Notes under the pieces: generated by a model
Databases searched by the model: none
Seen by the model: the letters and a program-made list of their open reading frames with translations, nothing else
What the model was told of the DNA's origin: nothing
In this document: positions 2,090 to 51,986 of the stretch, one piece after another
Numbering within the stretch: position 1 is the stretch's first letter
Layout of the letters: the number at the start of each line of letters is the position of its first letter
Source: Promethearchaeia archaeon
Lineage (GTDB): Archaea > Asgardarchaeota > Lokiarchaeia > Sigyniarchaeales > SOKP01
DNA length: 64,000 bases
Assembly: GCA_029856045.1 (NCBI GenBank)
Contig: JAHQWG010000047.1
Span: 128,001-192,000, forward strand
Direction: 5' to 3'
Position numbers and translations under genes: made by a program

Positions 2090-3086
2090 TTTTTATTTCT
2101 GCTCCAGTATTATTAGGTTTTGCAATTAAAACAGTACCTCCGACATCTTTAATGAATTCTTTACATTTAGGTTCTAAAATTTTTGCAGACTCATCATTTT
2201 CAGTAATTGCGACTACGCATGGTCCAAAAGAGGACATTCCATAAGCTTTTACTCCTTCTGCTTCTAAAAATTTCATTAATTTTTTAACAAATGGGTGTTG
2301 TAATTCTATTTCGATTTTCTTGAATCCAATTTTTTGGATTCGTTTTATTCCTTGTCCAAAACAATCTAAATCATTTTTAATTATTCCTGGTAAAACTTTC
2401 ATAATAATTTGATGTGAAACTTCATTGACTTCTTCTCGGTTAATTGGCGTATATTCTTGAAAGATATTTACTTCCTCCTGGTCATGAGCCCCTTGTTTTA
2501 CGTTAGGAATAATTATTATAAATCTCCAATTTTCGGGAATGGGGTATCTAATAAGAGTTAATGCAGGATCTGTTGATAAAGAAGCTGAAGAAGGCAGGTA
2601 AGTTGCTTTCTCTTTTTCATTACCAAAATCGTGCCCAGCATCCAAAATGAAGCCTCCTTGTTCAAAACCCCTCCATCCAATTCCAGACGTACCTCCTCTC
2701 CCAACTATTTTAGTAATCTTTTCTACGGGTAAATCTACCCCCTCTAATTTAGCTATTGCTAAACCGATTGCTAAGCTTAATTGGGTTTTTGATCCAATTC
2801 CTAAATGTTCCGGATAATATTCCTTAATTATGAAATGGTACTTTATATTTTTAACATTAAGAGCATTTGTTATAGCCTCAGTTTTTTCTTTAATGGTTGT
2901 TAAAAATCCATCATGAGGTTGATCAAATTCAATTTTTAACTCATCAGAATTATTGGAAGCCTCTATCACTATATTAGGGGATTCTAACATAAGACCAATC
3001 CCCCCATCAATTCTGCCAGTATACCCATTCTCATCAATTAAGGAGAAGTGCACTCTACACGGGGTTTTTATAGTGATTTTGATTAT
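2076..3086 (-). CDS. mptG: Beta-ribofuranosylaminobenzene 5'-phosphate (RFAP) synthase, GHMP family
   Basis: RIDGGIG, PEHLGIGSKTQL, GRGGTSGIG, GGFILDAGH, GMSSFGP. Start extended from the track's GTG (3053) to ATA 3086 (or ATC 3083) to include the conserved IKTPCRVH; GGTGA at 3095-3091. Confidence 0.88.
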   Translation of the reverse strand: MIKITIKTPCRVHFSLIDENGYTGRIDGGIGLMLESPNIVIEASNNSDELKIEFDQPHDGFLTTIKEKTEAITNALNVKNIKYHFIIKEYYPEHLGIGSKTQLSLAIGLAIAKLEGVDLPVEKITKIVGRGGTSGIGWRGFEQGGFILDAGHDFGNEKEKATYLPSSASLSTDPALTLIRYPIPENWRFIIIIPNVKQGAHDQEEVNIFQEYTPINREEVNEVSHQIIMKVLPGIIKNDLDCFGQGIKRIQKIGFKKIEIELQHPFVKKLMKFLEAEGVKAYGMSSFGPCVVAITENDESAKILEPKCKEFIKDVGGTVLIAKPNNTGAEIKIEKE

Positions 3087-3180
3087 AACTTCACCAAGGC
3101 AATTGACAAAAATAAATAACTTCTATCAAATATTCTAGCATATCATTAATTTTTAAGTTTATTAAAATTGTGAAACAAAA

Positions 3181-4569
3181 ATGAGTGATTTAGAAGGTCT
3201 TACAAGAAACCTGCTTAGAAAACAAAATTCTAAAACTGAAATCATTGAAAGATTAAAGCAAGAATATCTTGATTACAAAAATATATCTCCTCAAGAGGCA
3301 GAATTATTATCAAATGCAATCTATGAGGAATGTGTAAAGAGTGATACAAATTCGATAAGAAATAAATTTATTAAAAATCTACTCGAAATTCCTACAGCTA
3401 ATGTTTCAATTGGAAAACAAGGAGTTGGATGTAGAGGTCTAGGAGATTTTTTTGTGCATAAATTAATTGCTGAGCTTTCTATTACGAAAAGTGAGGCGTT
3501 CTTGGGACCCACTTCTCTTGATGATGCTGGAGCAATTCAATTGGGGAATTATACTGATTTCAAAGGAAGAGAATTTGTCAATTCCGATGTATTTATTGTT
3601 TCAAAAATGGAAGGTATTCACTCTCGATTAAGTGATTTCCCATTTATTTGTGGATTTCATGTAACAAGGGCTGCACTTCGAGATTTATATGTTAAGGGAG
3701 CAAAACCGATTTCGATTATGGTAGATGTTCATTTAGGTGACGATGCTGATGTTGGAAAACTTTTTGATTTTATGGTTGGGATCTCAACAATTTCCGAATT
3801 AACTAATGTTCCTATAACTGCAGGATCTACTTTAAGAATTGGGGGTGATATGGTAATTGGAGATCGGCTTGTGGGGGGAATAGCTGCAGTAGGTGTTTGT
3901 AAAAGAATTTTAGCTAGACGAAATATAATTCCCGGCAATAAAATATTAATGACTGAAGGAGCCGGAGGGGGCACGATCACAACTACTGCGATTTATTCAG
4001 GTAATCATGAGGTTGTTAAAGAAACCCTTAATATTAAATTTCTAAAAGCATGTGAGAAACTGTTGTCTTCTGATTACACAGATAAGATCCATTGCATGTG
4101 TGATGTGACTAATGGAGGTTTAAGAGGAGATTTATATGAGATTAATTATGAAGCAAAATGCGGAGTATTAATTCAAGAAAAAAAAGTAAAGGAATTGGTG
4201 AATCCCAGAGTCTTAGATCTTCTAAATAAAACGGGAGTAGATTATTTAGGTGTATCGTTAGATTCACTCTTAATATATTGTGATGAAAAGATAAGCGAAA
4301 ATATAATCAATGACTTAAAGGATATTGATATTAAATGTTCTGAAATTGGTCTTGTTGATGATTCAAATGAAGTGAGATTTGCCTCTGCAGATAAAAATTT
4401 TGCAACAATTCTCCCGAGATTTAGAGAATCTGCTTATACTAAAATAAAAAAGCAGATCGGAGAAAAAACTCCTGAGGATTACAAACAAATGGAAATAATG
4501 GTCAATTCTGCTGCAAAAAAAGCTCTAAATAAAAGAAAAGAAATTCTAAATTATATTAATTCGAATTAA
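3181..4569 (+). CDS. AIR synthase/HypE/ThiL-like (PurM superfamily) protein, conserved archaeal family
   Basis: GVGCRGLGDFFVH, LDDAG, EGIHSRLSDFPF, GSTLRIGGDMV, MCDVTNGGLRGD. Confidence 0.8.
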   Translation: MSDLEGLTRNLLRKQNSKTEIIERLKQEYLDYKNISPQEAELLSNAIYEECVKSDTNSIRNKFIKNLLEIPTANVSIGKQGVGCRGLGDFFVHKLIAELSITKSEAFLGPTSLDDAGAIQLGNYTDFKGREFVNSDVFIVSKMEGIHSRLSDFPFICGFHVTRAALRDLYVKGAKPISIMVDVHLGDDADVGKLFDFMVGISTISELTNVPITAGSTLRIGGDMVIGDRLVGGIAAVGVCKRILARRNIIPGNKILMTEGAGGGTITTTAIYSGNHEVVKETLNIKFLKACEKLLSSDYTDKIHCMCDVTNGGLRGDLYEINYEAKCGVLIQEKKVKELVNPRVLDLLNKTGVDYLGVSLDSLLIYCDEKISENIINDLKDIDIKCSEIGLVDDSNEVRFASADKNFATILPRFRESAYTKIKKQIGEKTPEDYKQMEIMVNSAAKKALNKRKEILNYINSN

Positions 4570-4586
4570 AACAAATAATTAAAATT

Positions 4587-5651
4587 TTGAACTATTTTAC
4601 TAAAAGTGACCTAATTAATAGTTTAAAAGGGTTAATAGCATACATAGAATTAAATTATAACGAAGGCACGGTTGTTGTTTCTGAATATGGTGCGCGAGTA
4701 TTAGGTATGTTTCCAAAAAAGGAATGCATTAATCTTCTATGGGTTAATCCTTTAATAAAAGATCTTATTACTAAAAACGAGTGGAATATTGGCGGTGATC
4801 GGTACTGGATTAGTCCTGAGAGGTTATTTTTCTATAAAAATCCTGAATCGTGGGAAAGTTGGTTTTGTCCTGAAGGGCTCGATCCTGCAGATTTTAAAAT
4901 AACCTCTTCTTCCAATACAAGTTGTCTTATTACTTCAGATATTTCTTTAACTAATCAATTAAATAAAAAAACTTATAATGGTAAAATAAAGCGATACATT
5001 TCATTGGTTAAGGAACCAATTAAAACTGGAGTTGCATATTGTGGGATTCAATATTTAGATGATTGTACGCTTTTCGTACCCGATCTACAAATTAATGGTT
5101 GGACTTTAACTCAGATAATATCGGGTGGTACTGAGAATCCAGGTACTGTGTTGATTCCAACTAAGAAAAATCCTAAACCTCAATCCTATTTTAGAACTAT
5201 TCCAAACGACCGTATAAAAATAATGGATACATATGTTGCGTTCAAAATTGATGTTGACGATATCTATAAACTTGCAATTCGACCAGAAGATATTGATTTA
5301 AAGCGAGCAGGAAAAATTGGTTATATATTAAAAATTCCAAATTCAGAGGATTATTGTTTTATGATTAAGATTTCTTTTGATATTCCTGATTCTCAAGAAC
5401 AATGCTTTGATATATCCAGAGATCACCCTGATGCTGAAATTGGAGTAATTCAATCCTATAACGCTGAATCTCCAGACAAAAGTAATCTAATGTTTGGTGA
5501 AATAGAACTACAATTAAACCCATTCAGAACCGTTTACCAAAAATCTCAAGGATTTGCTAAACATCAATTATTCGGATATCTTGGTACAAAAGAAGAAATT
5601 CTAAATGTTGTTGAAAAATATCTTGGAATTTTAAACCCGAAACTATTTTAA
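4587..5651 (+). CDS. Conserved hypothetical protein (DUF6786-like beta-rich fold)
   Basis: 354 aa; YGARVLG...NLLWVN...WNIGGDRYWISPE; family assignment from recall only. Confidence 0.55.
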   Translation: MNYFTKSDLINSLKGLIAYIELNYNEGTVVVSEYGARVLGMFPKKECINLLWVNPLIKDLITKNEWNIGGDRYWISPERLFFYKNPESWESWFCPEGLDPADFKITSSSNTSCLITSDISLTNQLNKKTYNGKIKRYISLVKEPIKTGVAYCGIQYLDDCTLFVPDLQINGWTLTQIISGGTENPGTVLIPTKKNPKPQSYFRTIPNDRIKIMDTYVAFKIDVDDIYKLAIRPEDIDLKRAGKIGYILKIPNSEDYCFMIKISFDIPDSQEQCFDISRDHPDAEIGVIQSYNAESPDKSNLMFGEIELQLNPFRTVYQKSQGFAKHQLFGYLGTKEEILNVVEKYLGILNPKLF

Positions 5652-5751
5652 AATTATCACTAAGAAAATTCTGAAATCTAAAATTAATTATCAATAAGGT
5701 TTTATTGAAAATATGAAAGGAATAAAATAAATAAAATCGATTTTTTATTTT

Positions 5752-7095
5752 TTATTTTAGGAAATTATAAGCCCATAGAGTGTAAACTTTTATTGCGTTA
5801 ATAAAATCTTCAATTTCCACATTTTCATTAATGGCATGTGCTGTAGCAGCATTTCCAGGGCCAAAAAGAATTGTTTTTTCGCAATATTTACTATTACGAT
5901 AATATTGAGCATCACTTGTTGCTGGGAATAAGAAATTTATCGGCTTTTTCTTATAGATTTTTTCAACTATATTATTAAAATCTTTTAACTTTTGAGATTC
6001 ATCCCAATTTCTCCAATAAGAAGGTTCTGATTGAAGAAAAACATCCAAATAAACAAAAACCTGGTTGGGTTTTCCTTTAGGGCTATCACTAAGTTCATAG
6101 CCTAAATCAATAATTAATTTTTTTAAAGCGTTGATCACCATTTCTGAATTTTGACCAGGTAATAACCTAAAATCAATGATTGCTTCACAATGATCAGGAA
6201 CGATATTCTCTTTAACTCCTCCGTTTATCATATTCATACTATTAGTTGATTGTAATAGGGATTTCAAAATACTTTGCAATTGTGGTTGCTCGTTGTAAAT
6301 TCTCTTGAAAGTTTCTTCATTTGGGAAAGCGGAACTTAGAAGTTTTAAAAGCGCTTTTTCAGGCATTGGAGGATCTACATCAGGAATCTCTAACTTATCT
6401 AAATTTTCAATAATTTCGGACATCATATAAATAGCGTTTTTACCTTGAAATGCAATAGAACTATGACATGCAATGCCATTTGTGATAATTTTTACTTGAA
6501 CAATACCTTTTTCGCCAAGAATGATGGCTTTAGGTAATGGATTATACCCTGTAGCTTCTCCTACAATAACAAAATCACATTTAATTGATTTCATTTTGTT
6601 TTCAATAAACCATTTTGTCCCCATTTTTCCGCCAGTCTCTTCGTCTGGAACCGCATTTAATATCAAATTACCAGCAAGTTTAATATTTAATTTTTTCAAT
6701 ATTTTTAAAGTAATAATCATTGCCGCTAATCCTGACTTCATATCTGTAGTTCCGCGCCCATACATAATCTTATTTCGCTTAATAAAACCTGAAAGAGGAT
6801 CATATTTCCAATCATCCAAAGAAGAAGGAGGGACTGTATCCATATGCCCATTATAAAGGAGGTTAGGACCATCAAAATTATCATTTAAAGTGGCGATTAA
6901 ATTAGCCCGATTATCTCCAAAAGGAAAAATCTCACTTTCAATACCGGCTTCTTTCAAATATTTTTCAATCTCAACAGCCAAGTCCATTTCATTTCCAGGA
7001 GGATTATAGGTGTTAATTTGTATCAATCGTTGTAAAAAATTAATATATTCCTCTCTGTTGGACTCAATTTCATTAAGAATGGATTCTTCAGTCAT
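5752..7095 (-). CDS. M20 family metallopeptidase/deacylase (ArgE/DapE-like)
   Basis: NGHMDTVP, GRGTTDMKSG, DEETGG, GEAT, GPG...AHAINE. Confidence 0.9.
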   Translation of the reverse strand: MTEESILNEIESNREEYINFLQRLIQINTYNPPGNEMDLAVEIEKYLKEAGIESEIFPFGDNRANLIATLNDNFDGPNLLYNGHMDTVPPSSLDDWKYDPLSGFIKRNKIMYGRGTTDMKSGLAAMIITLKILKKLNIKLAGNLILNAVPDEETGGKMGTKWFIENKMKSIKCDFVIVGEATGYNPLPKAIILGEKGIVQVKIITNGIACHSSIAFQGKNAIYMMSEIIENLDKLEIPDVDPPMPEKALLKLLSSAFPNEETFKRIYNEQPQLQSILKSLLQSTNSMNMINGGVKENIVPDHCEAIIDFRLLPGQNSEMVINALKKLIIDLGYELSDSPKGKPNQVFVYLDVFLQSEPSYWRNWDESQKLKDFNNIVEKIYKKKPINFLFPATSDAQYYRNSKYCEKTILFGPGNAATAHAINENVEIEDFINAIKVYTLWAYNFLK

Positions 7096-7116
7096 AATAA
7101 AATCTATGTGATTTAT

Positions 7117-7899
7117 TTATTTTAAAATTTGAGATATAATACTACAAAATTCTTTATAGGTTTTATTATTTCTTGGTAATTCCAAGATCGATGTTCCTAT
7201 AAAATTAAATTCACTAATTTCTTCATCTTCGGGAATAAAACCTAATAGTTTAACATTTTTTTTGAGAATTTTTTTGACCTCTCCCTCTAACTGCGATTTT
7301 AATCCATCTGAAAATCTATTTCCAATAACCCAGATATTCTTAAACTCTAACGTTAATTCATCAGTGATTTCGATAATTCTATTCATTGTATGAAAGCCCA
7401 TCTTACTGGGATCAGTCACAATTACCAAATCATCCACATCTTTATCCGTTTTTCTTGCAAAATGCTCAAGTCCAGCTGGCATATCCAAAATTGTGATCGA
7501 ATAGTTTTTCGAAATATCTTCAAGAATAGTCTTTAAAATTGAGTTAATATAACAATAACATCCCTCCCCCTCGCTCCTTCCCATTACCATTAAATCAAAT
7601 TTATCCTCTTCTATTAGTGAATCATAAACTTCCGCTTCTATCATTTGATTTTTAGATATACCTGGAGGTAAAGACCTATTAGCAATTTGATGTTTTAACT
7701 CAGTAGTAATTCCACCCACCGTATCCTTAAAAGGAACCTCCTTTCCTAAAAGATCAGCAATGTTTGAATCGGGATCGGCATCAATAACCAATATCTCAAG
7801 ATCGGGATAATTATTAATGAGATATTTTAAAAAAAGAGTTGCAAGAGTGGATTTTCCAACTCCACCTTTTCCTGAAAAGCTGATTTTCTTTTTTTTCAA
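7117..7899 (-). CDS. cooC: CO dehydrogenase/ACS nickel-insertion ATPase (CooC/AcsF)
   Basis: SGKGGVGKST, IDADPDSN, GEGCYC, DMPAGLEH. Confidence 0.9.
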   Translation of the reverse strand: MKKKKISFSGKGGVGKSTLATLFLKYLINNYPDLEILVIDADPDSNIADLLGKEVPFKDTVGGITTELKHQIANRSLPPGISKNQMIEAEVYDSLIEEDKFDLMVMGRSEGEGCYCYINSILKTILEDISKNYSITILDMPAGLEHFARKTDKDVDDLVIVTDPSKMGFHTMNRIIEITDELTLEFKNIWVIGNRFSDGLKSQLEGEVKKILKKNVKLLGFIPEDEEISEFNFIGTSILELPRNNKTYKEFCSIISQILK

Positions 7900-7935
7900 T
7901 TTAATTTACAAATAATAGTATTTATCAAAATTATT

Positions 7936-8754
7936 TTATTCACGCATTATAGGAACAATTTTTGACTCAAAATCCTCTCTATTATATGGAAATTCCTCAT
8001 CAGAACTTATTTGACCGATTAATCTGAGTACTTCTCGAGCCAATAAAAAGAATACTAAGCCAAGAGCCTTTTTACCTCTGTTATTGGCAGGAATTGCCAG
8101 GTCTACGTTTGCTAGATCATCATCAGTATCAATGAGCGATAAGACTGGAATTCGTGCTATTTTTGCTTCTTTCAGAGCTTGTTTATCTGCATGTGGATCA
8201 ACAATTATTACTAATGAAACGTTTCTAATGTAAGCCTCCATGTTTGGGTTAGTTAACGAGCCGGGAACAAATCTAATATCCCTCGCAATCACATTCTTAC
8301 CTAATACTTCCGAAAATTTTCTTATAGGCTCTTTTCCATACCTCCTCACAGAAGATATAACAATCTTAGATGATTCGTCATGAGTTTTCCCTTCTTCTAT
8401 AAATTTGGCAATCCATTTGGCAGCAATGTGAAGTCTTTCTTCAGTTCGGCGTATATTGAGAACGTAGAGTCCGTAATTGGTTTGCCTGTAAATAAAGTCA
8501 TTACTGGCGCTAAAATGGTTGAGGTGAATATTTCTAAGTTTTCCACTTAAAATCTTCGTTCCAATATGAATTCCACTACTTAAAAACATCTGCTTAATCT
8601 CCTCATCCATCTCCTCAACTTCTTCTTCCTCAGGCTTTTCTTCTACAGGAATAATAAATTCTTCTTCAACTTCTTCTTCCTCAATTTCTTCAAAATCTTC
8701 CTTAAAATCCTCCTCGAAATCTTCCTTTAATCCATCGTCTTTTTTCTCTGACAT
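7936..8754 (-). CDS. rps2: 30S ribosomal protein S2 (uS2) with acidic N-terminal extension
   Basis: SGIHIGTK, GLYVLNI, RFVPGSLTNP, DPHADKQALKEA, DLAIPANNRGKKAL. Confidence 0.93.
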   Translation of the reverse strand: MSEKKDDGLKEDFEEDFKEDFEEIEEEEVEEEFIIPVEEKPEEEEVEEMDEEIKQMFLSSGIHIGTKILSGKLRNIHLNHFSASNDFIYRQTNYGLYVLNIRRTEERLHIAAKWIAKFIEEGKTHDESSKIVISSVRRYGKEPIRKFSEVLGKNVIARDIRFVPGSLTNPNMEAYIRNVSLVIIVDPHADKQALKEAKIARIPVLSLIDTDDDLANVDLAIPANNRGKKALGLVFFLLAREVLRLIGQISSDEEFPYNREDFESKIVPIMRE

Positions 8755-8932
8755 AATATCTCTGACACAGTATCTTTTATAAGCTTAATATTAAACTCTA
8801 ATAAAATATAACTTTAATAATTTTTGATTTCTAAAAAAAAAGATTAAAATTTAAGTTCTTACGTTATATTCTAAATAAATAACAGTCCGAAAAAAAGTTA
8901 AAATTTTAAATTGCATATAAGAGAGAAAAAAA

Positions 8933-9445: not shown

Positions 9446-9553
9446 TTATGAGATATGCAATATATCAATAATTTAAAAAAAAAAAATGAAATTTTAATTT
9501 TCTAAAATTTCTAATATATTTTAAAAAAAAAAGTCTATTTAATCGTTAGACGT

Positions 9554-10492: not shown

Positions 10493-10622
10493 AGGAGCAT
10501 TACTTCAAGGAATTGATAACATTATTATGGATAAAATAATATTATTACTATAATTACTATTAAAAAAATTTTCTGGAAATTTATCAATTTTACGCTCAAA
10601 ATCAAAGGCTTAAGCTAAGGAA

Positions 10623-16295: not shown

Positions 16296-16778
16296 TTATT
16301 TTATCTTATTTAATATTCCACCTACTTCTAATATCTCTACTAAAAATTTAGGAATTTTGCACATCTGAATTTTGATCTTTTTTGTTTCATTTACAATTAC
16401 TTCATTCTTTATAGAAATTTTTAAAATATCTCCCTCAGAGAATTTCTTTTTTACATCATTAATTTTTAGTGCAGGGATACCAAGATTAATTAGATTTCGG
16501 AAGTAGATTCGAGCAAATGATTCTGCTATTACAGCTTCAATTCCCAAAACTTTTAAAACATTAACTGCTTCTTCTCTAGAACTTCCCGACCCAAAATTTT
16601 TACCTGCAACAATAATATCGCCTTTTCTCACGTTTTGAACAAAATCTGGTCTTAGATTCTCTAAAACGTGTTTTGCAATTTCACCATTATCCCTTAAAGT
16701 TAAATATCGATGAGGTATGATATCATCAGTATTTATATTATCGCCGAATAAAAAAACTCTGCCTTTAATCTCCTTCAT
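16296..16778 (-). CDS. leuD: 3-isopropylmalate dehydratase/homoaconitase small subunit
   Basis: DNINTDDIIP, NFGSGSSREEA, ESFARIYFRN; LeuD versus HacB not resolved. Confidence 0.85.
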   Translation of the reverse strand: MKEIKGRVFLFGDNINTDDIIPHRYLTLRDNGEIAKHVLENLRPDFVQNVRKGDIIVAGKNFGSGSSREEAVNVLKVLGIEAVIAESFARIYFRNLINLGIPALKINDVKKKFSEGDILKISIKNEVIVNETKKIKIQMCKIPKFLVEILEVGGILNKIK

Positions 16779-16787
16779 AATATTGTG

Positions 16788-22545: not shown

Positions 22546-22630
22546 AAATGGACTAAAGTACCCTTAAATAGCTAAGTTGATATTTTAAAAATAAAGAATA
22601 TTAAAAATATAATATTGGGTGTAAAAAAAC

Positions 22631-23032
22631 ATTCCATATGGATATTGTCCAAACTGTCGTCAAAACGTGCTTCTTGTTCGCGAAGATATTGATTGGATGT
22701 TAGCATTTTTTCTAATTTGTTTCACTTGTGGTTGTGGACTATTTATATATCTCATAATTTATTATAGTAAACCAGAAAATAGATGTGTGCACTGTTATTC
22801 TATAGTTCCAGGTTTACAGCAACCTACTCAACCTTATGAGGTTCATCCTCCTTCTCAGAAAGTTTCTCAGCCCTATGAAGTTCAAACACCTCAAGAAGAT
22901 ATTTATGAAATATCACAAAATCAAAATATTACACCTGAAAAAGAGATTAGAACCAACTATTGTCCCTATTGTGGAGAGAAAATTGAGGAAAATGCACGTT
23001 TTTGTGCTGGTTGCGGTGCAAAAATTATTTAA
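22631..23032 (+). CDS. LITAF-like zinc/membrane-hairpin protein with C-terminal zinc ribbon (paralog 2), ATT start
   Basis: IPYGYCPNCRQNV lies in frame upstream of the track's GTG 22667; in-frame TAA at 22622; GGGTG at 22617-22621; NRCVHC; CPYCG...CAGCG. Confidence 0.72.
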   Translation: MPYGYCPNCRQNVLLVREDIDWMLAFFLICFTCGCGLFIYLIIYYSKPENRCVHCYSIVPGLQQPTQPYEVHPPSQKVSQPYEVQTPQEDIYEISQNQNITPEKEIRTNYCPYCGEKIEENARFCAGCGAKII

Positions 23033-23120
23033 TTTTATTATAATAATATAAAAATCATTATATGAAAAAATAATCCTAAAATCAAAAAAACACAAAAATT
23101 GAAGAAAAGAGGCTTTAAAA

Positions 23121-23495
23121 ATTACTTACGGATATTGTGATCAATGTAAGCAAAACGTGCTCCTTGCAAGAGAAGAGATTGACTTGTGTCTAGCAATAAT
23201 TTTATTAATTTTTACAGCTGGAATTGGACTAATAATTTATCTTATGATTTATTACTCACGAAGCGAGAATAGGTGCATTCACTGTAATTCAATTGTATCG
23301 TCACAATCACCTGGTTACATTCCTCAACCTAAATCTAGTCAATTACAAACCACTGAAGTGGAATATAATCAAGAAGATCAAAATCAAGTTGTTGCATCTC
23401 AAGAACCTGTAAAACAGGAATACTGTCAATTCTGTGGAGAAGAACTTGAAAAAGGCGCCCAATTTTGCAGGGAATGTGGCACTAAAGTTCCTTAA
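23121..23495 (+). CDS. LITAF-like zinc/membrane-hairpin protein with C-terminal zinc ribbon (paralog 3), ATT start
   Basis: ITYGYCDQCKQNV lies in frame upstream of GTG 23157; in-frame TGA at 23100; GAGG at 23109-23112; NRCIHC; CQFCG...CRECG. Confidence 0.72.
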   Translation: MTYGYCDQCKQNVLLAREEIDLCLAIILLIFTAGIGLIIYLMIYYSRSENRCIHCNSIVSSQSPGYIPQPKSSQLQTTEVEYNQEDQNQVVASQEPVKQEYCQFCGEELEKGAQFCRECGTKVP

Positions 23496-40314: not shown

Positions 40315-40345
40315 TTAGTTCATTGAAAATTAATCTTATTTTAGA

Positions 40346-44885: not shown

Positions 44886-45046
44886 ATAAAAATACCTTTA
44901 TTTTTCTTTTAGATATCAAAAATATCTTTTAATAATAAATAAAATCGTCATTATATCATGATATGGTAATAAAGAAAATCTTAAACTTCTTAAATAATAT
45001 CAATTCATTATATACATCATCACTGTAGGGTATTAATGATAAGATC

Positions 45047-45409
45047 CTAAAAATTTAAAACCTCTTTAATTTTTTTTACTAATTCTTCAAAATCAAAAGG
45101 TTTTTCAATAAAATCAGCCGCTCCAATTGAAAGTGCTTCTTCTCGAACAGTCTTATCTGCACTTGCAAAAATAATTTTTGGGTTTTTTCCAAGACTAATA
45201 ATTTCTTTTGTGGCATCAATCCCACTTTTGATCGGCATCCGATGATCCATTATAATAATATCCGGTTTTTCTGAAAATAATTTAAATTTATCAACAGCTT
45301 CCTGCCCATTTTTTGCAACCCCAATAATTTGAAATCCCCAAAAACTCAATAATTTTTGATATAGATCTCGGATTGCTCGATCATCCTCAACGATAAAAAT
45401 ATTGGTTAT
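45047..45409 (-). CDS. Single-domain response regulator (CheY-like), ATA start
   Basis: IFIVEDD lies upstream of the track's TTG 45349; DIIIMDHRMP..SG, SA, EKPF; first possible start is ATA 45409, with an in-frame TAA upstream. Confidence 0.9.
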   Translation of the reverse strand: MTNIFIVEDDRAIRDLYQKLLSFWGFQIIGVAKNGQEAVDKFKLFSEKPDIIIMDHRMPIKSGIDATKEIISLGKNPKIIFASADKTVREEALSIGAADFIEKPFDFEELVKKIKEVLNF

Positions 45410-45413
45410 TTTC

Positions 45414-48209
45414 CTAAACCTCTGGAATTATTATAATAAAATTACTCCCTTTTGAATAATCTCCTTGAACTTTATCTTCCACCCAAATTTCTCCATTACA
45501 AAGTGATACAATTTTTTTTACTAATGATAATCCCAACCCCATACCACTTGTGCTCTTATCTGCTCTATAAGCCCTTTCAAAAATTATCTCTTTTTGATCA
45601 TCAGAAATTCCGTAGCCATTATCAATAAATTCCATTTTAAGAAATTTACTACCCTCTTTTTTAATTTTTGAAAATTTAATGAGAATTTCAACAATTGAGC
45701 GTTCATTATATTTTACAGCATTAATTAATATGTTTTCAAATACATCTATTAAGAGATCATTTGCTTTAGCAAACAATTTTTTTTTTTCAGTCTCAATCTC
45801 TATATTAATTTTTCTCTTCTGGAAATTTTTCTTCAAAATCTCAACTGATTCCTTTAAAATCTTACAAACTTCTATAGATTGTGTAAGAATTTGAGCCTTA
45901 TCCAAATCAGAAAGTTTTTGTATATTTGAGATCAAGGTTGCACCCCTTCTAACTTGCTGTTTTGTGGTATTAAACATACTTCTTACTTCAGGTAATATAA
46001 TTTCCTCACCTAAATAATGAGTAGCAATTTCTATTGAAGATAATATATTTTGAAGAATATTATTCATATCGTGAGTAAAAAGATCCTTATAAAAATTAAC
46101 GCGATTATAAGCTTCACGATAATTCTCTTCCGATTCTTTTAGTTTTTGTTCTGCTTTTTTCCTCTCTGTGATATCCTGTATTATAAATTGTATCAATGAT
46201 TGATCTTCTATCTTTATTAAAGAACCATGGAGATTTGTCCATATTATACCTCCTATTGATCTACTTAATGGAAACTCAAATGATTCTGTAACTTCACCTC
46301 TAAGCGCTTCATTGAATTGCTTTTCGAATAATGATACAAGAGGTTTATTTCTCTCATTAAATGAGAAAATTTCTCTGAAATTTCTTCCGACTAAATAATC
46401 TTTTGTATGCGTAGAAAGAAAATGATTTGTAGCAGTATTACAATCTATAAGATTTCCTTTTAAATCCAAAAGCCCTATGGAATATGGAGAACTTTCGAAT
46501 AAATGTCGATATTTTTCTTCGGATTCCCTTAATTTTTGTTCCCAATTTTTTCTTTCAGTGATATCCCGTATAAGACCATAAAACCCAATCTTTTTTCCTT
46601 CAGAATCACGTTTTAAATAAACAGAACTTTCAATAAATCGTTGTTGTCCATCCTTTCTATTCGTTTTAAATTCTATTGTTGCTCGAGGAATCTCATCTTT
46701 ATAAACCATATTGAACTTCTTAAAAATGTCTTTAATATTTTCCGTATGAATCAATGTGCCATAATTCTTTCCCAATAATTCAGCTTTCGTATATCCAAGA
46801 TATTCAGCTAATCGATCATTGAAAAATTTGAGATTTCCTTTGAGATCTACCTCATAATATCCTTCCTTAATATCTTCAAGAATTCCTCGATATTTTTCTT
46901 CGGATTCTTTAATCTTCCGTTCTGCTAACACACGCTCAGTAATATCACGGCTGATTCCGAACAAGACATCTTGATCATCCCAACGACCTTTAGTAAAAAT
47001 TGTTTCAACGGGAATTATTTTCTCTTCCTTGGTAATAAATGGAATATTACAAGAATTAATTTTACCCTCAACTAAGTCTCTGAAAATTCTAAGCGCACGA
47101 TCGTTTTGGGCAGGGGGATAAATTTTTAATATATTCATTTTTAGCATTTCCTCTTCTGAATAATTTAAGGTTTTTAAAACGGAAGGATTAATGTTGAGAA
47201 AGCGCCCATCGAAATTCAGAACAAATATTAATTCTTGCATAGAATCGAATAACGTTTGTAAATTTGCCTGACTTTCTTGAAGAGCTTCTTCGGTTTGCAT
47301 TTTTTCTATAATTGCACCGGTTTCTTGTGCTATAGTTTGAAATATATTTTTTTCTTCGTTTGAGAAGAAATGACGATTTTTAAAGGCTATATTTATTGTT
47401 CCATAGACTTTATTTTTTACAAAAAAGGGGATACTGGCAAGGGATAATATTCCCCACTTTTTTGAACGCCTAGGATTAAGTTTAGAATAATCCTCGGCAA
47501 ATAGTGGCTGCCCTTCGTTAAAAACAATATTATAAGCACCTTCATCGATTTTAACTCGCTTCACATCTTTAATAAAATCGGAAGGAAGCCCTTTAAAACA
47601 TGCTAATTCAGCAATCCTTGTGCTTTCATCCACTAAATAAATACCTCCCCCTTCAAAATTCATCAATTCAAGGGTTGAATTTAATACATTTTCTAATAAC
47701 AATGATAAGTCCTTAATTTTATTTACTGCTATTATAATTCGGTTTAAAATTTCCATTTTTCTTGCGTATTCTTTTATATTTTCTTCTGCCTTCTTGCGTT
47801 CGGTTATATCTAGAAGTGATGCTACACTTTTTTTTGTTCTAGGAATCATATCGATATTTAGCAATATATCCCGAATATCACCTCTTTTATTGATGAAATG
47901 AAACTCGTAACTTTTTGGAGCAATGTCAGAGGTTTTTCTGCGTGAGTAATGATACTTTTTCATCATCTCTAATTCTTCTTTGATAACAAATTCAGTCCAT
48001 TTTTTTTTCCATTCAATCTCTTCTTTTGAATAACCAGAGAGTTCTTCAAATTTTTCGTTTGCAAGTGAAATAGTGGTGTCCTTCTCGATTATAACAGTTG
48101 CAGTACCTGTATTTTCGAAAATAGTTCGGTATTTTTCTTCAGATTCCTTTAAATTTATTTCCTTCTCTATTCGCTTTCTTGACTCCAAGTTTTTATCTTC
48201 ATTATTCAA
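45414..48209 (-). CDS. PAS-GAF-PAS-PAS-PAS sensor histidine kinase
   Basis: GAF (GGIYL...SLASIPF...YGTINI), PAS repeats, FTHDMNNILQ, NAVKY, DNGYGI, GMGLGL. Confidence 0.93.
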   Translation of the reverse strand: MNNEDKNLESRKRIEKEINLKESEEKYRTIFENTGTATVIIEKDTTISLANEKFEELSGYSKEEIEWKKKWTEFVIKEELEMMKKYHYSRRKTSDIAPKSYEFHFINKRGDIRDILLNIDMIPRTKKSVASLLDITERKKAEENIKEYARKMEILNRIIIAVNKIKDLSLLLENVLNSTLELMNFEGGGIYLVDESTRIAELACFKGLPSDFIKDVKRVKIDEGAYNIVFNEGQPLFAEDYSKLNPRRSKKWGILSLASIPFFVKNKVYGTINIAFKNRHFFSNEEKNIFQTIAQETGAIIEKMQTEEALQESQANLQTLFDSMQELIFVLNFDGRFLNINPSVLKTLNYSEEEMLKMNILKIYPPAQNDRALRIFRDLVEGKINSCNIPFITKEEKIIPVETIFTKGRWDDQDVLFGISRDITERVLAERKIKESEEKYRGILEDIKEGYYEVDLKGNLKFFNDRLAEYLGYTKAELLGKNYGTLIHTENIKDIFKKFNMVYKDEIPRATIEFKTNRKDGQQRFIESSVYLKRDSEGKKIGFYGLIRDITERKNWEQKLRESEEKYRHLFESSPYSIGLLDLKGNLIDCNTATNHFLSTHTKDYLVGRNFREIFSFNERNKPLVSLFEKQFNEALRGEVTESFEFPLSRSIGGIIWTNLHGSLIKIEDQSLIQFIIQDITERKKAEQKLKESEENYREAYNRVNFYKDLFTHDMNNILQNILSSIEIATHYLGEEIILPEVRSMFNTTKQQVRRGATLISNIQKLSDLDKAQILTQSIEVCKILKESVEILKKNFQKRKINIEIETEKKKLFAKANDLLIDVFENILINAVKYNERSIVEILIKFSKIKKEGSKFLKMEFIDNGYGISDDQKEIIFERAYRADKSTSGMGLGLSLVKKIVSLCNGEIWVEDKVQGDYSKGSNFIIIIPEV

Positions 48210-48450
48210 TTTTAATCATCATTTTTTTATTTTAATGTTAATACTCACATATTATCTAAAATTATTAAATTAAAATTTAAGTAGGAAAATAATTGAATTA
48301 GAAAATTTTGATTCTTGATCTTTATATTTAATACAAATATTTCATATAAAGTTTAAAATTATTTTATATACGAAATTCGATTATATTTAAAAATTTCATA
48401 AAAATTAATTTAGGATATAAATTAAGAAGAAAAAATGTAGGGATTTAAAT

Positions 48451-49242
48451 TTACATAAACAATTGCGAATATCTTTCCTTTGATCCGGGTTCTTTTTGCG
48501 ATAAATGCATCTGTTGAGCTTTTTGGGCTAATTCCATCATCTTATTTTTTATTTCTTTACCACGTTCTAATAAATCTGAGACATCAACTCCTAATTGATA
48601 AATAGTATTAAGAGCCTTAATTATTTCTGCACCTCCTTCTGGTGTCGGAATCTGCTGGTAAGCATCAGTAAATAAGATATATGCATCAATAGGGTTGTTT
48701 AAGCATTCATTTAATATTGTGGCTTCAGGTCCTACGACTAAACCTTTGGGTATAATTTCAAGTCCAAGCTTTTCAAGTTTTTCCTTTATCTCTTTCTCAG
48801 CAGCAAAGAAAACTTTAAATTTTTCTACCATATTCAATGTTGGAATACCTTGCAGTATTACCATTTCCTTAGCTTTTATATCTTGGGACAAAGCCCAATT
48901 ACAAATTGTCCTGGCGAGGTCAGAATAATCTTTTGGGGTAGAAAAGGGGAGATCGCAAACACCGACAACTATATTTTTACTTTCAGAATAGTATAATCTA
49001 AAGGGGCGCTTTAAGATCCCATCTGTAAACACTGCAATAGGCGGAAATGAATCGCTTGCAACAAACCCAATTTGTTTAATATCTTCAATTTTTTCAACTA
49101 ACTCGTTAGTCACAATTGGTCCAATTAATCCGATTCCTGCAAATCCTAAAATAACCGTGGAATTTGGCTGAATTTCTTTAGGATCAACCCCTAAAACAAT
49201 CCTACTTCTTTTGCCTTTCTCACAAATATATACTTTGGTCAT
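48451..49242 (-). CDS. Proteasome assembly chaperone PAC2 family protein
   Basis: GFAGIGLIG, FPPIAVF, PFRLY, PTPEGG, VDVSDLLE. Confidence 0.85.
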   Translation of the reverse strand: MTKVYICEKGKRSRIVLGVDPKEIQPNSTVILGFAGIGLIGPIVTNELVEKIEDIKQIGFVASDSFPPIAVFTDGILKRPFRLYYSESKNIVVGVCDLPFSTPKDYSDLARTICNWALSQDIKAKEMVILQGIPTLNMVEKFKVFFAAEKEIKEKLEKLGLEIIPKGLVVGPEATILNECLNNPIDAYILFTDAYQQIPTPEGGAEIIKALNTIYQLGVDVSDLLERGKEIKNKMMELAQKAQQMHLSQKEPGSKERYSQLFM

Positions 49243-49434
49243 AATATTCTCACAAAAATTTGAGTTTCAATAAAAGTAATTGTTTTGTATATAATTAATT
49301 ATTTTGTAATATTAACTAAAAACGATATATAAGAGAAAATTTTTATTAACTTCTAAGATATTAAAGAAAAAGTAAATTTATTAAAATCATAAAAGAGTAA
49401 TTAATATCATATAAGAAATTAATGGTGTGGAGAA

Positions 49435-50028
49435 ATTTCAAAGAATATTCCAGATGTATCAAATTTAATATATTTTATTCATTTTGGAACGAAGGAACAT
49501 ATATATTTTTCTTGGAAATCAAAATATAGACCAAAGGCTTTCATTTTTGATTACGCAATTGCAAAGAATGCCCTCAAAACCGATATATATTATCAATTGA
49601 ACAAGGGGGATGTTAAAATAGTTTATATTAAAAAAAATAGTTTTATTTATATAATTGGGGGGCATATTTCAGTCCAATATCAAATCCTTGAAGCATTAAT
49701 TGAACATCTTTCTATAAAATTTATTGAAATTTATGGAGATGTTCTAAAAGAAATTTTTGATATTGGAACAGATGATTTCTTTAAAGATTTTATTTCAAAA
49801 ATTGAAAATTCAATTAAACATATTCCTAATCAAATTGGGAAAATAATTAACGTATATTGCAGAATTTGTGGCGAATATGTAAATGTTTACGTGAAAGATA
49901 GCTTAATTGAAGATGCAGAAGATTACCCAGTCGCTTTAGTATATATGCACCATGGGCACTCTCTTTTGTTATATATTGATGCAGATTTTAAAGTGAGGGG
50001 AGCCGAAATCGTTTCAATTACCGGTTAG
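49435..50028 (+). CDS. Longin-like domain plus C-terminal Cys/His zinc-binding domain, ATT start
   Basis: Frame open from ATT 49435 (TAA at 49420, GGTGTGGAG at 49424-49432). Beta-beta-alpha-beta3-alpha-alpha hydrophobic pattern (ILEALIEHLSIKFIEIYG...FKDFISKIE), then CRIC...HHGH...YIDADFKVRG. The fold call is inference. Confidence 0.6.
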   Translation: MSKNIPDVSNLIYFIHFGTKEHIYFSWKSKYRPKAFIFDYAIAKNALKTDIYYQLNKGDVKIVYIKKNSFIYIIGGHISVQYQILEALIEHLSIKFIEIYGDVLKEIFDIGTDDFFKDFISKIENSIKHIPNQIGKIINVYCRICGEYVNVYVKDSLIEDAEDYPVALVYMHHGHSLLLYIDADFKVRGAEIVSITG

Positions 50029-50643
50029 AGATAACCCCTCAACCTTTGTTTTTAAAAAGCGTTCTTGTTTGAATATTCTTCTTGTTAAAATATCAAAAGG
50101 CTCATTAATTTTGATACCAGTTTTTGAAGATACCTTTAAATAATCATCCAAATTATACCTTTCTCTCAATTCTAAAGGATAAATATCATCCACAGATATT
50201 TTTTCTCCTAAATCAAGTTTTGTTCCTAATAATAGGATCGGAAGGTTTGGATCCTCATCTCGAATCATTTTAACCCATTCTTCTATCCTATTAAGAGTAG
50301 TCATTCGAGTGAGATCAAACATCAAGAGAGCTCCGTATGCTCCGTTTAGATAATACTGCAAAATTGATCGAAATTGTATTTCTCCTCCTAAATCCCAGAG
50401 TTGCAACTTATACCCCATTCCGTCAATTATAATCTCTTTTAGAAAAAATTGAACACCTACCGTTAGCTTAGTATCAGGTATGAATTTTTCTTCTACATAT
50501 CGATGTAAGAAAGTTGTTTTACCTACACCACCTTCTCCTGCGACAATAATCTTTAAAAAATCTTTTGGTTTGGTTTCTTTCTTTTCCTTATCTTTTTTGA
50601 TGCTGACAGTAGGCTTTTTTTTTCGCTTTTTAAATAACTTCAT
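50014..50643 (-). CDS. Rab/Ras-like small GTPase
   Basis: G1 GEGGVGKT, G2 TVGVQF, G3 WDLGGE, G4 TKLD, G5 VSSK; polybasic N-terminus. Confidence 0.92.
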   Translation of the reverse strand: MKLFKKRKKKPTVSIKKDKEKKETKPKDFLKIIVAGEGGVGKTTFLHRYVEEKFIPDTKLTVGVQFFLKEIIIDGMGYKLQLWDLGGEIQFRSILQYYLNGAYGALLMFDLTRMTTLNRIEEWVKMIRDEDPNLPILLLGTKLDLGEKISVDDIYPLELRERYNLDDYLKVSSKTGIKINEPFDILTRRIFKQERFLKTKVEGLSLTGN

Positions 50644-50695
50644 AAAAATATGAATTCCATATTCTATTAGTTATTGAAAAATTTATTACTTTTTT

Positions 50696-51064
50696 CTAGA
50701 AATTCCACCATCCATAAATTATGGAAATAATACCCCCAATTAAAACAACGAGATTCAATACGAGATCGCCTTTATTTGAACTAAATCTACCTTGCTGTTT
50801 GTTATAAGTTAGATCTATTAAGCCTAAAAACACTAAAGCGCCTCCAGAAATTAAACTGAAAATTACTCCAAAACTTTCTCCTAAAAAATTTCCGATTGCA
50901 GCCAAGATCAAGATCGGAACAACCCAGCCAAGGTCAGGTACTGGAAAGCTTCTTTCATGGCTTAAATAAGCTTCTGAATTTTCCGGATTTTTATTTTGCA
51001 CCTTGAAAAAATCAATCCAAAACCAAATAATCGCTGCGCTTCCTAATATTTGCAAGATTGCCAT
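50696..51064 (-). CDS. Small hypothetical membrane protein
   Basis: Four TM segments; YLSHERSFPVPD loop. Confidence 0.7.
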   Translation of the reverse strand: MAILQILGSAAIIWFWIDFFKVQNKNPENSEAYLSHERSFPVPDLGWVVPILILAAIGNFLGESFGVIFSLISGGALVFLGLIDLTYNKQQGRFSSNKGDLVLNLVVLIGGIISIIYGWWNF

Positions 51065-51188
51065 TAAAATATTAAAAATTTTTTATCGACTCCAATTGAT
51101 TTAAAATTATTTAATATAATTATATGCATTTAATTAAATTAAGAGTTTTTCAAACTTTATATACTAAAATGTTTAAAGGTGATAAAAA

Positions 51189-51986
51189 ATTTTTGATAAA
51201 TTTTTAGAAGGAAAGGGTGCCGTTATAACTGGCGCTGCTTCTGGGTTTGGAAGAGATATTGCCTTAAAATACGCAGAATTAGGTGCAAACTTGGTTTTAA
51301 ATGATATTAATGAGGAAGGACTTGAAGAAACCACAAAAATGGTGAAATCAAAATTTGGTTCTGAAGTTCTACCTATTAAAGCTGATGTGTCAATTGGGGA
51401 TGAAGTAAATCAAATGAGGAAAAAAGCCTTTTCTACTTTTGATAATATATTTGTGCTAGTTAACAATGCAGGAGGAGGTGTCTCGTCTTTTAAAAATATT
51501 CTTGCCAGAACAGAAGAAGATTGGCATAAAATTTTAGATATTAATTTAAAAAGTCAATGGTTGATGGCTAAAGCGTTCTGTAGAAAAATGAAACCACAAA
51601 AATTTGAACCAATATCTGGGAAGGTAATTAATATGGCTTCAATAGCTGGTGTGCGGCCAGAAGCACAAACACCCGTGTATAGCATAGCTAAGGCTGGAAT
51701 TATTGCGTTAACAAAAATATTGGCAGCACAACTCGCACCAAAAATGACGGTTAATAGTATAGCTCCTGGATACCATATAACTGGACTGTATAATAATTCA
51801 GAACAAGCATTAAAAGACGCGATGGAGGTTCAGGGTATAAAAACCCCCTTAAATAGATTGGGAACAGTTGAAGATGTGTCAAAAGTTGCTGTATTTTTAG
51901 CTTCACCCCTCTCTGATTTCATTACAGCTCAAAATATCGTTGTAGATGGTGGCGTAATTACAGTAGGTGTGGCTGCACATTTATAA
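51189..51986 (+). CDS. Short-chain dehydrogenase/reductase (FabG-like), ATT start
   Basis: TGAASGFG Rossmann motif lies upstream of the track's TTG 51291; NNAG, YSIAK, VNSIAPG, VDGG; TAA at 51183; GGTGA at 51178-51182. Confidence 0.9.
   Translation: MFDKFLEGKGAVITGAASGFGRDIALKYAELGANLVLNDINEEGLEETTKMVKSKFGSEVLPIKADVSIGDEVNQMRKKAFSTFDNIFVLVNNAGGGVSSFKNILARTEEDWHKILDINLKSQWLMAKAFCRKMKPQKFEPISGKVINMASIAGVRPEAQTPVYSIAKAGIIALTKILAAQLAPKMTVNSIAPGYHITGLYNNSEQALKDAMEVQGIKTPLNRLGTVEDVSKVAVFLASPLSDFITAQNIVVDGGVITVGVAAHL

Follow-up and report, generated by a model that had tools for sequence, protein, structure and literature searches.

Six intact genes of a Loki-type Asgard archaeon most likely start translation at ATT, ATA or ATC behind a ribosome-binding site

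In the uncultured Loki-type archaeon (Promethearchaeota; Lokiarchaeia; Sigyniarchaeales) represented by assembly GCA_029856045.1, six intact genes in the window and at least 40-60 genes across the genome most likely start translation at ATT, ATA or ATC (ATH), 7-8 bases behind a ribosome-binding site, so that these proteins are cut short by standard gene finders. The window is the whole 64,000-nucleotide stretch that was analysed (contig JAHQWG010000047.1, positions 128,001 to 192,000). A probability of about 0.87 was assigned to this reading, which rests on sequence evidence only, as no RNA or protein data exist for the organism, and its mechanism is inferred.

Start sites in the window

All six sites were read directly and are as given in the preliminary description, whose observation is confirmed. 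In each of them, no ATG, GTG or TTG lies between an in-frame upstream stop and conserved N-terminal sequence, and an ATH codon sits 7-9 nt behind a GGTG or GAGG motif that matches the anti-SD of the 16S rRNA (Table 1). The 3' end of the 16S rRNA is complementary to GGAGGTGATCC, and canonical starts peak at 7-8 nt behind the last G of GGTG, the spacing for the ATC of mptG being eight nt counted in this way. The first canonical start of mptG lies inside the conserved TPCRVH motif, that of Zn-knuckle gene 2 after the CPNC knuckle, and that of the short-chain dehydrogenase (SDR) gene after the N-terminal glycine-rich dinucleotide-binding motif, 25 codons downstream of it. Two labels of the preliminary description needed correction. 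The genes termed LITAF-like do not hit a LITAF Pfam model, only their C-terminal zinc ribbons being hit, and although a CxxC, hydrophobic stretch and HxCxxC layout is visible by eye, the resemblance remains only a lead; and for mptG, where ATA 3086 or ATC 3083 had been proposed, ATC 3083 is the codon homologous to the ATG of the orthologues. A second ATH lies within a few codons in mptG, the response regulator and the longin gene.

Table 1. Coordinates of the ATH-initiated genes and their Shine-Dalgarno (SD) motifs in the window
Position	Strand	Feature	Start codon or spacing	In-frame upstream stop	First canonical start
2076..3083	-	mptG (beta-ribofuranosylaminobenzene 5'-phosphate synthase), 335 codons	ATC 3083-3081	TAG 3125-3123	GTG 3053
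3091..3095	-	SD GGTGA of mptG	8 nt before ATC
22631..23032	+	Zn-knuckle membrane protein 2 ('LITAF-like 2')	ATT 22631	TAA 22622	GTG 22667
22617..22621	+	SD GGGTG	9 nt before ATT 22631
23121..23495	+	Zn-knuckle membrane protein 3	ATT 23121	TGA 23100	GTG 23157
23109..23112	+	SD GAGG	8 nt before ATT 23121
45047..45409	-	CheY-type response regulator, 4 nt after the stop of the histidine kinase gene	ATA 45409-45407	TAA 45430-45428	TTG 45349
45418..45422	-	SD GAGGT	8-9 nt before ATA 45409
49435..50028	+	Predicted longin-domain protein, 197 codons	ATT 49435	TAA 49420	TTG 49597
49424..49427	+	SD GGTG	7 nt before ATT 49435
51189..51986	+	Short-chain dehydrogenase, 265 codons	ATT 51189	TAA 51183	TTG 51291
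51177..51183	+	SD AGGTGAT, overlapping in-frame TGA and TAA stops	7 nt before ATT 51189

Genome-wide spacing signal

Genome-wide, in-frame ATA, ATT and ATC codons upstream of the first canonical start peak sharply at the spacing of ATG genes, and the pattern exceeds chance. At spacing 7-8 with an SD of 5 nt or more, 52 of 2304 in-frame ATH codons were counted (ATA 21, ATT 22 and ATC 9), against 20 of 5712 AT-rich control codons (AAA, AAT, TTT, TAT and TTA; Fisher p 2e-14) and 10 of 3406 out-of-frame ATH codons (p 2e-12), where AAA, AAT, TTT and TAT gave 4-6 each from similar or larger totals and out-of-frame ATH gave 0-4 each. The SD-anchored count has a noise floor of about 8 of 46 hits at an SD of 5 nt or more and about 50 of 114 at 4 nt or more, so that the individual genome-wide candidates are not all real. 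The SD-anchored excess is about 38-64 genes, perhaps 100-120 after correction, which is roughly 2-4% of all genes or about 14-20% of SD-led starts, whereas the figure of about 10% of genes in the preliminary description holds for this window only (6 of about 62 ORFs). HypA begins ATA-His-Glu behind GGGGAGAG.

Other estimators were less useful. A gap-length tail model implied that 8-10% of genes lack a canonical start, but it was rejected because the control genome G044, which has no ATH peak, shows the same heavy tail. The codon-usage log-odds of the 12 codons upstream of the first canonical start separated coding from non-coding sequence too weakly, and its result depended on the choice of the negative set. 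Raw counts of SD-N-ATH patterns without ORF context were swamped by in-frame GGT-GAx codons, and pattern scans of other genomes were not used.

Conservation among orthologues and independent assemblies

The comparison of orthologues, which the preliminary description had named as a test, came out in its favour, as homologous codons are ATG or GTG in orthologues for five of the six genes (SDR, mptG, the response regulator and both Zn-knuckle genes). For mptG, ATC 3083 aligns with the ATG of orthologues in 8 other genera, while GTG 3053 is GTA in the genus relatives G001 and G004 and ATA 3086 is ACA in G001. For Zn-knuckle gene 2, ATT and ATG interchange at one codon among four same-genus genomes, with ATG in G004 and ATT in G000, G001 and G002, behind the same (A/G)GGTG and an in-frame stop. 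For gene 3, ATT is kept in G002 and G004 behind GAGG, and other genera have ATG 2-4 codons before the GYC motif. The ATA of the response regulator is kept in G001, G002 and G004, is ATG in the further genome G009 and in a paralogue of G007, and is ATA or ATT behind GGAGG in G006, G007, G003 and a paralogue in its own genome. For the SDR, other genera have ATG or GTG at the same codon and genus relatives have ATA, although in these genus relatives a GTG inside the SD is in frame, so a canonical start cannot be excluded there. The longin gene differs, as its genus relatives start with ATG two codons downstream of the ATT, where this genome has AAG; residues invariant across 6 genera lie upstream of TTG 49597. 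Of 9 SD-ATH candidates with a G004 orthologue, 7 keep the same codon, one is ATT>ATA and one is ATA>ATG, all in frame with the SD kept.

Reads with ATG at these sites, or ATG in all relatives together with pseudogene-like dN/dS, had been named in advance as observations that would count against the reading. The same codons occur in three other assemblies of the genus and in contigs of metagenomes from other studies and years, and independent assemblies and metagenome contigs carry ATH, not ATG; the metagenome contigs carry the same ATA 45409 and ATT 49435, and at the SDR a strain polymorphism (1-nt indel at 51184 plus T>A at 51191) lies between the SD and ATH, the start varying only by an indel upstream of ATH and an ATT/ATA change. 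The frames are intact, and orthologue identity within the genus is 82-97% with no stops. In one relative, a 176-codon rubrerythrin gene has no in-frame ATG, GTG or TTG at all and has ATT behind GGTGA, the ATT/ATA being kept in about 17 species, and ATT starts are kept in 17-25+ species at two neighbouring genes.

Domain boundaries and public gene calls

Pfam envelopes start upstream of the first canonical start in the response regulator, where positions 1-111 of Response_reg (PF00072) map to residues 4-115 of the ATA-start protein, giving a full receiver domain with strand 1 and the acidic pair, and in the SDR, where position 2 of adh_short (PF00106/PF13561) falls at residue 10 while the first canonical start is at residue 35. 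The same was observed in 7 of 10 further candidates, namely the Ras-type GTPase P-loop, AOR, POR, PFL, TFB zinc ribbon, ETF and DUF7065. The longin gene has no Pfam hit, but its predicted structure agrees with the beta-beta-alpha-beta-beta-beta-alpha longin fold and places strands 1-2 and helix 1 before residue 55; this model has pLDDT 78.8 and pTM 0.79 from only 10 sequences, and the other four models are poor. The best fold matches in Foldseek are the longin domains of VAMP7, Sec22b and SYBL1 (E 4e-5 to 3e-3, TM by target 0.56-0.66). Public MptG gene calls of this clade are 302-325 aa, against 334-337 aa for ATG-start orthologues, and are 10-31 residues short, in agreement with the expectation of the preliminary description that gene callers would truncate such proteins.

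Distribution and initiation machinery

The habit is shared by other genera of the family and by a second family, for which the sample was 400 kb, and it is not detectable in two other Asgard families, one of them equally AT-rich, where the same statistic is flat in two genomes that have 60-65 strong SD-led canonical starts each. Inspection of aIF1 and the single initiator tRNA, also proposed beforehand, showed no obvious lesion that would explain relaxed fidelity, and both look ordinary. aIF1 is present, has the Zn knuckle and aligns over its full length with the M. jannaschii factor, and lower SUI1 scores in this family are only a hint. ARAGORN with and without introns and the Rfam tRNA model found only 17-25 tRNAs; many tRNAs carry introns and were not found. 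The initiator was found by a motif search, and no second initiator-like gene turned up. Only one tRNA-Ile (GAU) and one CAU initiator were identified, and no sign of a changed code was seen, although alignment of internal AUA with conserved Met positions was not examined. The aIF1 gene has GTG as its first possible start in G000 and G008 and TTG or ATA in G026, but ATG in G041, G044 and G061; with three genomes against three and no functional test, an infC-type autoregulation is neither favoured nor disfavoured by this pattern.

Interpretation and alternative explanations

The interpretation in the preliminary description is supported, apart from the 10% figure, and every test it proposed that was run came out in favour. 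The analysis itself demonstrates the codons, their SD spacing and statistical excess, their homology to ATG in relatives, their conservation across independent genomes and the need for the upstream residues to complete the domains. In the proposed mechanism, the 3' end of the 16S rRNA would pair with a GGAGGTGA-type SD in a leadered mRNA and place the P site 7-8 nt downstream, where the single initiator tRNA (anticodon CAU) would be accepted on AUH with a mismatch at the third codon position only, so that the protein begins at that codon, presumably with Met. It is by inference only that the initiator tRNA reads AUH and inserts Met, that proofreading by aIF1 is more permissive in this lineage (the preliminary description spoke of relaxed start-codon selection), and that AT mutation pressure supplies ATG-to-ATH changes which are tolerated mainly on SD-led genes. 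The N-terminal residue and the exact first codon are unproven, since no proteome was at hand and all sequence runs examined were DNA contigs, which say nothing about expression or 5' ends. For the response regulator, re-initiation after termination may help.

The best surviving alternative, which is nevertheless unlikely, is that full-length proteins are made by termination-reinitiation from the upstream gene, by a frameshift from a nearby out-of-frame ATG (51169, 49422, 22638) or from another near-cognate codon nearby. The closeness of the response regulator's ATA to the kinase stop, the TAA abutting the ATT in the 524-codon pterin-binding gene of relatives, and the out-of-frame ATGs close to three of the sites are consistent with it. 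However, mptG, the SDR and the longin gene face a divergently transcribed neighbour and the two Zn-knuckle genes have 85-88 nt spacers, so that a start within a few nt of an upstream same-strand stop was found only for the response regulator. Moreover, the out-of-frame ATGs have no SD and open frames of only about 12-35 codons, ATG 51169 is absent in relatives, and the sharp peak at one spacing and only for ATH fits a P-site codon.

Less likely still is initiation at the first downstream GTG or TTG, with the upstream frame as untranslated leader, although such a codon exists in each of the six genes and public gene calls use them. These codons lack an SD (score of 1-2 nt at the right spacing) and fall inside conserved motifs or domains, GTG 3053 is not kept in relatives, one orthologous gene in a relative has no canonical codon at all, and the upstream residues are conserved across genera as protein. 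Sequencing or assembly errors, or start-codon loss in decaying pseudogenes, for which only the 55-contig, AT-rich assembly and the A6T5 run at the SDR start could be cited, are very improbable given the independent assemblies, the wide conservation and the intact frames.

Relation to other non-canonical initiation

AUU-initiated bacterial genes (E. coli infC, pcnB), the ATT-initiated ebpA of Enterococcus faecalis (PMC4447247) and the degenerate initiation triplets studied in vitro (PMC5499595) likewise involve a near-cognate AUH codon behind an SD, differing from AUG only at the third position, but those are isolated genes, a fraction of a percent of a genome and often regulatory, whereas here the archaeon has eukaryote-type factors (aIF1, aIF1A, aIF2) rather than IF3 and ATH makes up a substantial share of SD-led starts. 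In mitochondria and Mollicutes, ATT, ATC and ATA are listed as initiators (NCBI tables 2, 4, 5 and also 11) and the genomes are AT-rich ones in which ATH starts are common, yet they are reduced, partly with a changed meaning of AUA and a modified tRNA-Met, while the present genome is a free-living 3.3 Mb one. Proteomics-proven non-canonical starts in Deinococcus deserti (PMC2830850) concern a handful of genes, and the near-cognate putative initiation sites in Haloferax volcanii ribosome profiling (PMC7261190) are mostly alternative sites, set aside by the authors as possible false positives, whereas here the codons are the only possible starts of conserved full-length genes. Near-cognate initiation in eukaryotes, policed by eIF1/eIF5 (reviewed in PMC6412873 and PMC6237735), uses homologous machinery and tolerates third-position mismatches at low efficiency, but eukaryotes scan and rely on Kozak context, while here the codon is set by SD pairing. 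No paper on ATH starts in Asgard archaea was found in the literature searched, which does not prove that none exists.

Implications

Gene finders limited to ATG, GTG and TTG systematically shorten or miss a few percent of proteins in these Asgard genomes, including eukaryote-signature ones (a Ras-type GTPase loses its P-loop and a longin protein loses half its domain) and core genes (TFB, HypA, MptG), which distorts the domain inventories, structure predictions and phylogenies used in work on eukaryote origins. An archaeon with eukaryote-type initiation factors that uses AUH for about one in six SD-led genes is far outside what is described for prokaryotes, and the contrast with two other Asgard families gives a comparative handle on what sets start-codon fidelity. 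A more speculative and rather unlikely possibility is that a clade of Lokiarchaeia (at least two families) has a heritable loosening of start-codon proofreading, by which AUU, AUA and AUC have become regular start codons on SD-led mRNAs, and that the non-AUG start of the aIF1 gene in exactly these genomes could form an infC-like feedback loop that sets how permissive initiation is. If so, the stringency of start-codon choice was an evolvable trait in the closest archaeal relatives of eukaryotes.

Other candidate starts in the window

ACG 14540 was also considered as a start and was rejected, since TTG 14576 behind GGGTG fits the start of the Pfam domain, and GTG 18065 of the aconitase-family gene is likewise adequate.

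Six genes with probable ATH starts and the sequence that precedes them

The six sites are located in contig C51 (window at 128001-192000) of a 55-contig genome of 3.34 Mb with 29.4% GC (here G000), the closest public relatives of which are MAGs labelled Promethearchaeota/Promethearchaeia, that is Loki-type Asgard archaea. All six sites read as they had been set out in the preliminary description, and that observation is confirmed. In each case an in-frame stop lies 1-13 codons upstream of an ATT, ATA or ATC codon (ATH), no ATG/GTG/TTG is found between that stop and the conserved N-terminal sequence, and a GGTG/GAGG motif ends 7-9 nt before the ATH codon. The 16S rRNA ends in the complement of GGAGGTGATCC, and sub-motifs of that string upstream of first canonical starts peak so that 7-8 nt separate the last G of GGTG from the start codon, a spacing that the six sites share. 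The coordinates of the codons and of further features are listed in the table.

Table. Coordinates of start codons and other features discussed in the text; positions in the window unless a contig (C) of G000 or a locus (L) is named
Feature	Location	Strand
mptG, ATC start codon	3083	
mptG, ATA preceding the ATC	3086	
mptG, internal GTG	3053	
ATT directly preceding an ATG	16778-16783 (ATT 16781, ATG 16778)	minus
Response regulator, ATA start codon	45409	
Longin gene, ATT start codon	49435	
Short-chain dehydrogenase (SDR), ATT start codon	51189	
Population polymorphism at the SDR start	51184 and 51191	
ORF hitting the Pfam Gelsolin repeat	55120-55713	
HypA-like gene, ATA start	C51:117140, 10.86 kb before the window	minus
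aIF1 gene	L130:1408-1758 (C27:190751-191101), and L281-L285	
Single initiator tRNA gene	C27:220560-220656	minus
Ras-family small GTPase, ATT start	C35:99358-99888	minus
TFB, ATC start	C53:11207-12163	
Rubrerythrin with N-terminal rubredoxin-like domain	L205:7752-8279	minus
Pterin-binding protein next to mptG	L156:13400-14974 and the homologous place in 25 or more loci of L135-L209	

Genome-wide enrichment of ATH codons behind SD motifs

To assess whether the pattern exceeds chance, 2834 non-overlapping stop-to-stop ORFs of 100 codons or more were called, of which 2791 have a closed 5' end, and every in-frame codon lying at least four codons upstream of the first ATG/GTG/TTG was examined. With an SD match of 5 nt or more at spacing 6-9, the hits were ATA 25/921, ATT 24/1139 and ATC 9/244, whereas AAA gave 6/1782, AAT 4/1127 and TTT 6/1114. 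The spacing profile is decisive: in-frame ATA and ATT each have 17 hits at exactly 7 nt, and ATC has 3 and 6 hits at 7 and 8 nt, while the same triplets one or two bases out of frame have 0-4 hits there and AT-rich control codons have 0-4. Summed at 7-8 nt, the counts are 52/2304 for ATH, 20/5712 for the controls (p 2e-14) and 10/3406 for out-of-frame ATH (p 2e-12). GGTGA holds an in-frame TGA or GTG and so constrains which frames are possible, but this constraint applies to all codon types alike and cannot explain an ATH-specific peak. SD motifs are not rare in this genome, as 458 of 2790 first canonical starts have 4 nt or more of GGAGGTGA at 6-9 nt, against about 61 expected by chance, although published reviews of archaeal initiation state that SD motifs are rare in Lokiarchaea (PMC7531240, PMC12993045).

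Conservation of the probable start codons among orthologues

Alignment of orthologues to find the homologous first codon had been put forward in advance as a check on the reading, and it came out in favour. For the SDR, five other-genus genomes of the family have ATG or GTG exactly at the codon homologous to the ATT, several of them behind an SD, and three genus relatives have ATA there. For mptG, the ATC aligns with the ATG or TTG start of orthologues in other genera of the family; in the genus relatives G001 and G004 the internal GTG is GTA, and in G001 the preceding ATA is ACA, and ATC is therefore the start. The ATA of the response regulator is kept in three genus relatives and equals ATG in the genome G009 and in a paralogue of the genome G007, whereas ATA or ATT behind GGAGG/GAGG occupies the same place in G003, G006 and G007 (other genomes compared) and in an own-genome paralogue. 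For the longin gene, genus relatives start with ATG two codons downstream, where the present genome has AAG and instead has GGTG plus the ATT. The clearest case is Zn-knuckle gene 2, in which G004 has ATG where G000, G001 and G002 have ATT, behind the same SD and in-frame stop; Zn-knuckle gene 3 keeps ATT in G002 and G004, while other genera have ATG. In a wider sample of 400 kb of G004 (296 orthologue pairs, median 91% identity), 9 SD-ATH candidates map to 7 identical ATH codons, one ATT>ATA and one ATA>ATG, all in frame with the SD kept.

Assembly errors and decaying pseudogenes, both of which had been named beforehand as findings that would overturn the reading, are not supported. Contigs of independent metagenomes (salt marsh 2019, marine sediment 2021) cover the stretch at near identity and show no difference at the ATA of the response regulator or the ATT of the longin gene. 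At the SDR start a population polymorphism was observed, as two salt-marsh strains carry a 1-nt deletion at 51184 plus T>A at 51191, the form seen in G001/G004 (A5 plus ATA), and a 2021 marine run carries the form of the window (A6 plus ATT). The indel lies between the GTG inside the SD and the ATH and switches that GTG in and out of frame while the gene stays intact, which is what one expects if translation begins at ATH and the bases upstream are leader.

Requirement of the upstream residues for complete domains

Pfam places Response_reg positions 1-111 on residues 4-115 of the ATA-start protein and adh_short position 2 on residue 10 of the ATT-start SDR, whereas the canonical starts would be at residues 21 and 35. 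For the longin gene, residues invariant across six genera lie before residue 55; an AlphaFold model (pLDDT 78.8, from a shallow alignment) puts strands 1-2 and helix 1 there, and its best PDB matches are the VAMP7, Sec22b and SYBL1 longin domains. Of 41 genome-wide candidates, ten were searched against Pfam, and in seven the domain envelope begins upstream of the first canonical start: a Ras-family GTPase, which starts at ATT and has its P-loop upstream of any canonical start; aldehyde:ferredoxin oxidoreductase; POR (OFOR/POR), which starts at ATT; a PFL-like glycyl-radical enzyme; TFB, which starts at ATC and has its first canonical start in the middle of the zinc ribbon; ETF; and DUF7065. 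The HypA-like gene begins ATA-CAC-GAG (I/M-H-E) 6 nt behind GGGGAGAG, with the first canonical start 35 codons downstream; in HypA the Met1-His2-Glu3 N-terminus binds nickel, so the first codon is fixed. The practical consequence is visible in public gene calls, in which MptG is 325 aa at 100% identity and 302-304 aa at 72-88% identity, but 334-337 aa in the ATG-start orthologues.

Distribution and frequency of probable ATH starts

In G004, of the same genus, 10 ATH hits were observed at 7-8 nt, against 25 ATG starts with a strong SD. Three other genera of the family, pooled, gave 5/201 against 9/1409 (p 0.02), and G026, a closed genome of another family in the same order, gave 5/209 against 6/1442 (p 0.008), including a MazF-like gene whose conserved N-terminus precedes any canonical start. 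Around mptG in 77 further MAGs, two neighbouring genes keep an ATH start in many species. One is a rubrerythrin of 176 codons, with ATT or ATA behind GGTGA in about 17 MAGs, which in locus L205 has ATT behind GGTGA and not a single in-frame ATG/GTG/TTG; the other is a pterin-binding protein of 524 codons with ATT directly after a TAA in 25 or more MAGs and behind GTGAT in many species, which possibly combines coupling with an AUU start. Two closed Asgard genomes of other families show no enrichment, although each has 60-65 strong SD-led canonical starts: G061 (40% GC) gives 3/235 against 25/2372, and G044 (31% GC) gives 3/313 against 26/2774. The statistic is therefore not an artefact of method or of AT-richness, and the habit is lineage-specific.

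With the core motif GGAGGTGA, the excess of ATH over the rate of other non-start codons is about 64 genes at SD of 4 nt or more and about 38 at 5 nt or more, whereas the first canonical starts give 458 and 156. After chance hits are subtracted, ATH makes up about 14-20% of SD-led starts. Allowing for ORFs under 100 codons, for ATH codons hidden behind a chance upstream canonical codon, and for ATH within three codons of a canonical one, roughly 100-120 genes, or 3-4%, are estimated, which is an extrapolation. The window holds 6 such genes among about 62 real ORFs, so that the figure of 10% given in the preliminary description is local; a tail model that gave 8-10% was rejected, because G044 shows the same tail.

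Initiation machinery and comparison with known non-canonical starts

The interpretation that these ATH codons serve as start codons is supported, but direct protein-level proof is still missing. The analysis itself establishes the SD, the spacing, the homology to ATG and the codon set, which comprises third-position variants of AUG only, as CTG, AAG and AGG show no peak and ACG has 2-3 hits; that Met-tRNAi reads AUH on SD-positioned ribosomes is inferred, and the analysis does not explain why this clade tolerates it. The initiator tRNA and aIF1 had been singled out earlier as places where fidelity-relaxing changes might be sought. The genome has one initiator tRNA gene, with anticodon CAU, an A1:U72 pair, three G:C pairs in the anticodon stem and a 21-nt intron just 3' of the anticodon loop; only about 25 tRNA genes are found by standard tools, so many tRNAs here are probably intron-bearing or split. 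One aIF1 was found, with a Zn knuckle and an ordinary basic loop. The aIF1 gene itself has no ATG, its first possible start being GTG in G000 and in the genome G008 and TTG or ATA in G026, whereas aIF1 starts with ATG in G044, G061 and a further genome, G041. This recalls infC autoregulation, but with three genomes against three the comparison does not settle the matter either way. SUI1 Pfam scores are also lower in this family (50-70 bits, against 71-86 in most other Asgard families).

Single AUU/AUA/AUC starts behind an SD are established in bacteria. Examples are infC and pcnB. Such a start is also described for ebpA (PMC4447247), and in vitro work has been carried out (PMC5499595). A few were proven by proteomics in Deinococcus deserti (PMC2830850), and near-cognate putative sites were seen in Haloferax ribosome profiling and set aside by the authors (PMC7261190). 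The reviews of archaeal initiation cited for SD use do not mention AUH starts (PMC7531240, PMC12993045), and no paper describing this habit was found. What is new relative to these cases is that the use of ATH starts is lineage-wide, and its main immediate consequence is systematic truncation of Asgard proteins in public annotation.

Within the window, one further gene has an ATT directly preceding an ATG, with a 6-nt SD lying 9 nt before the ATT and 12 nt before the ATG, so that which codon starts the gene is ambiguous. No adenylate kinase was confirmed among the genes scanned in 53-56 kb, leaving the 'adk' label of the preliminary description without confirmation, whereas one ORF of this region hits the Pfam Gelsolin repeat, a eukaryote-signature protein.
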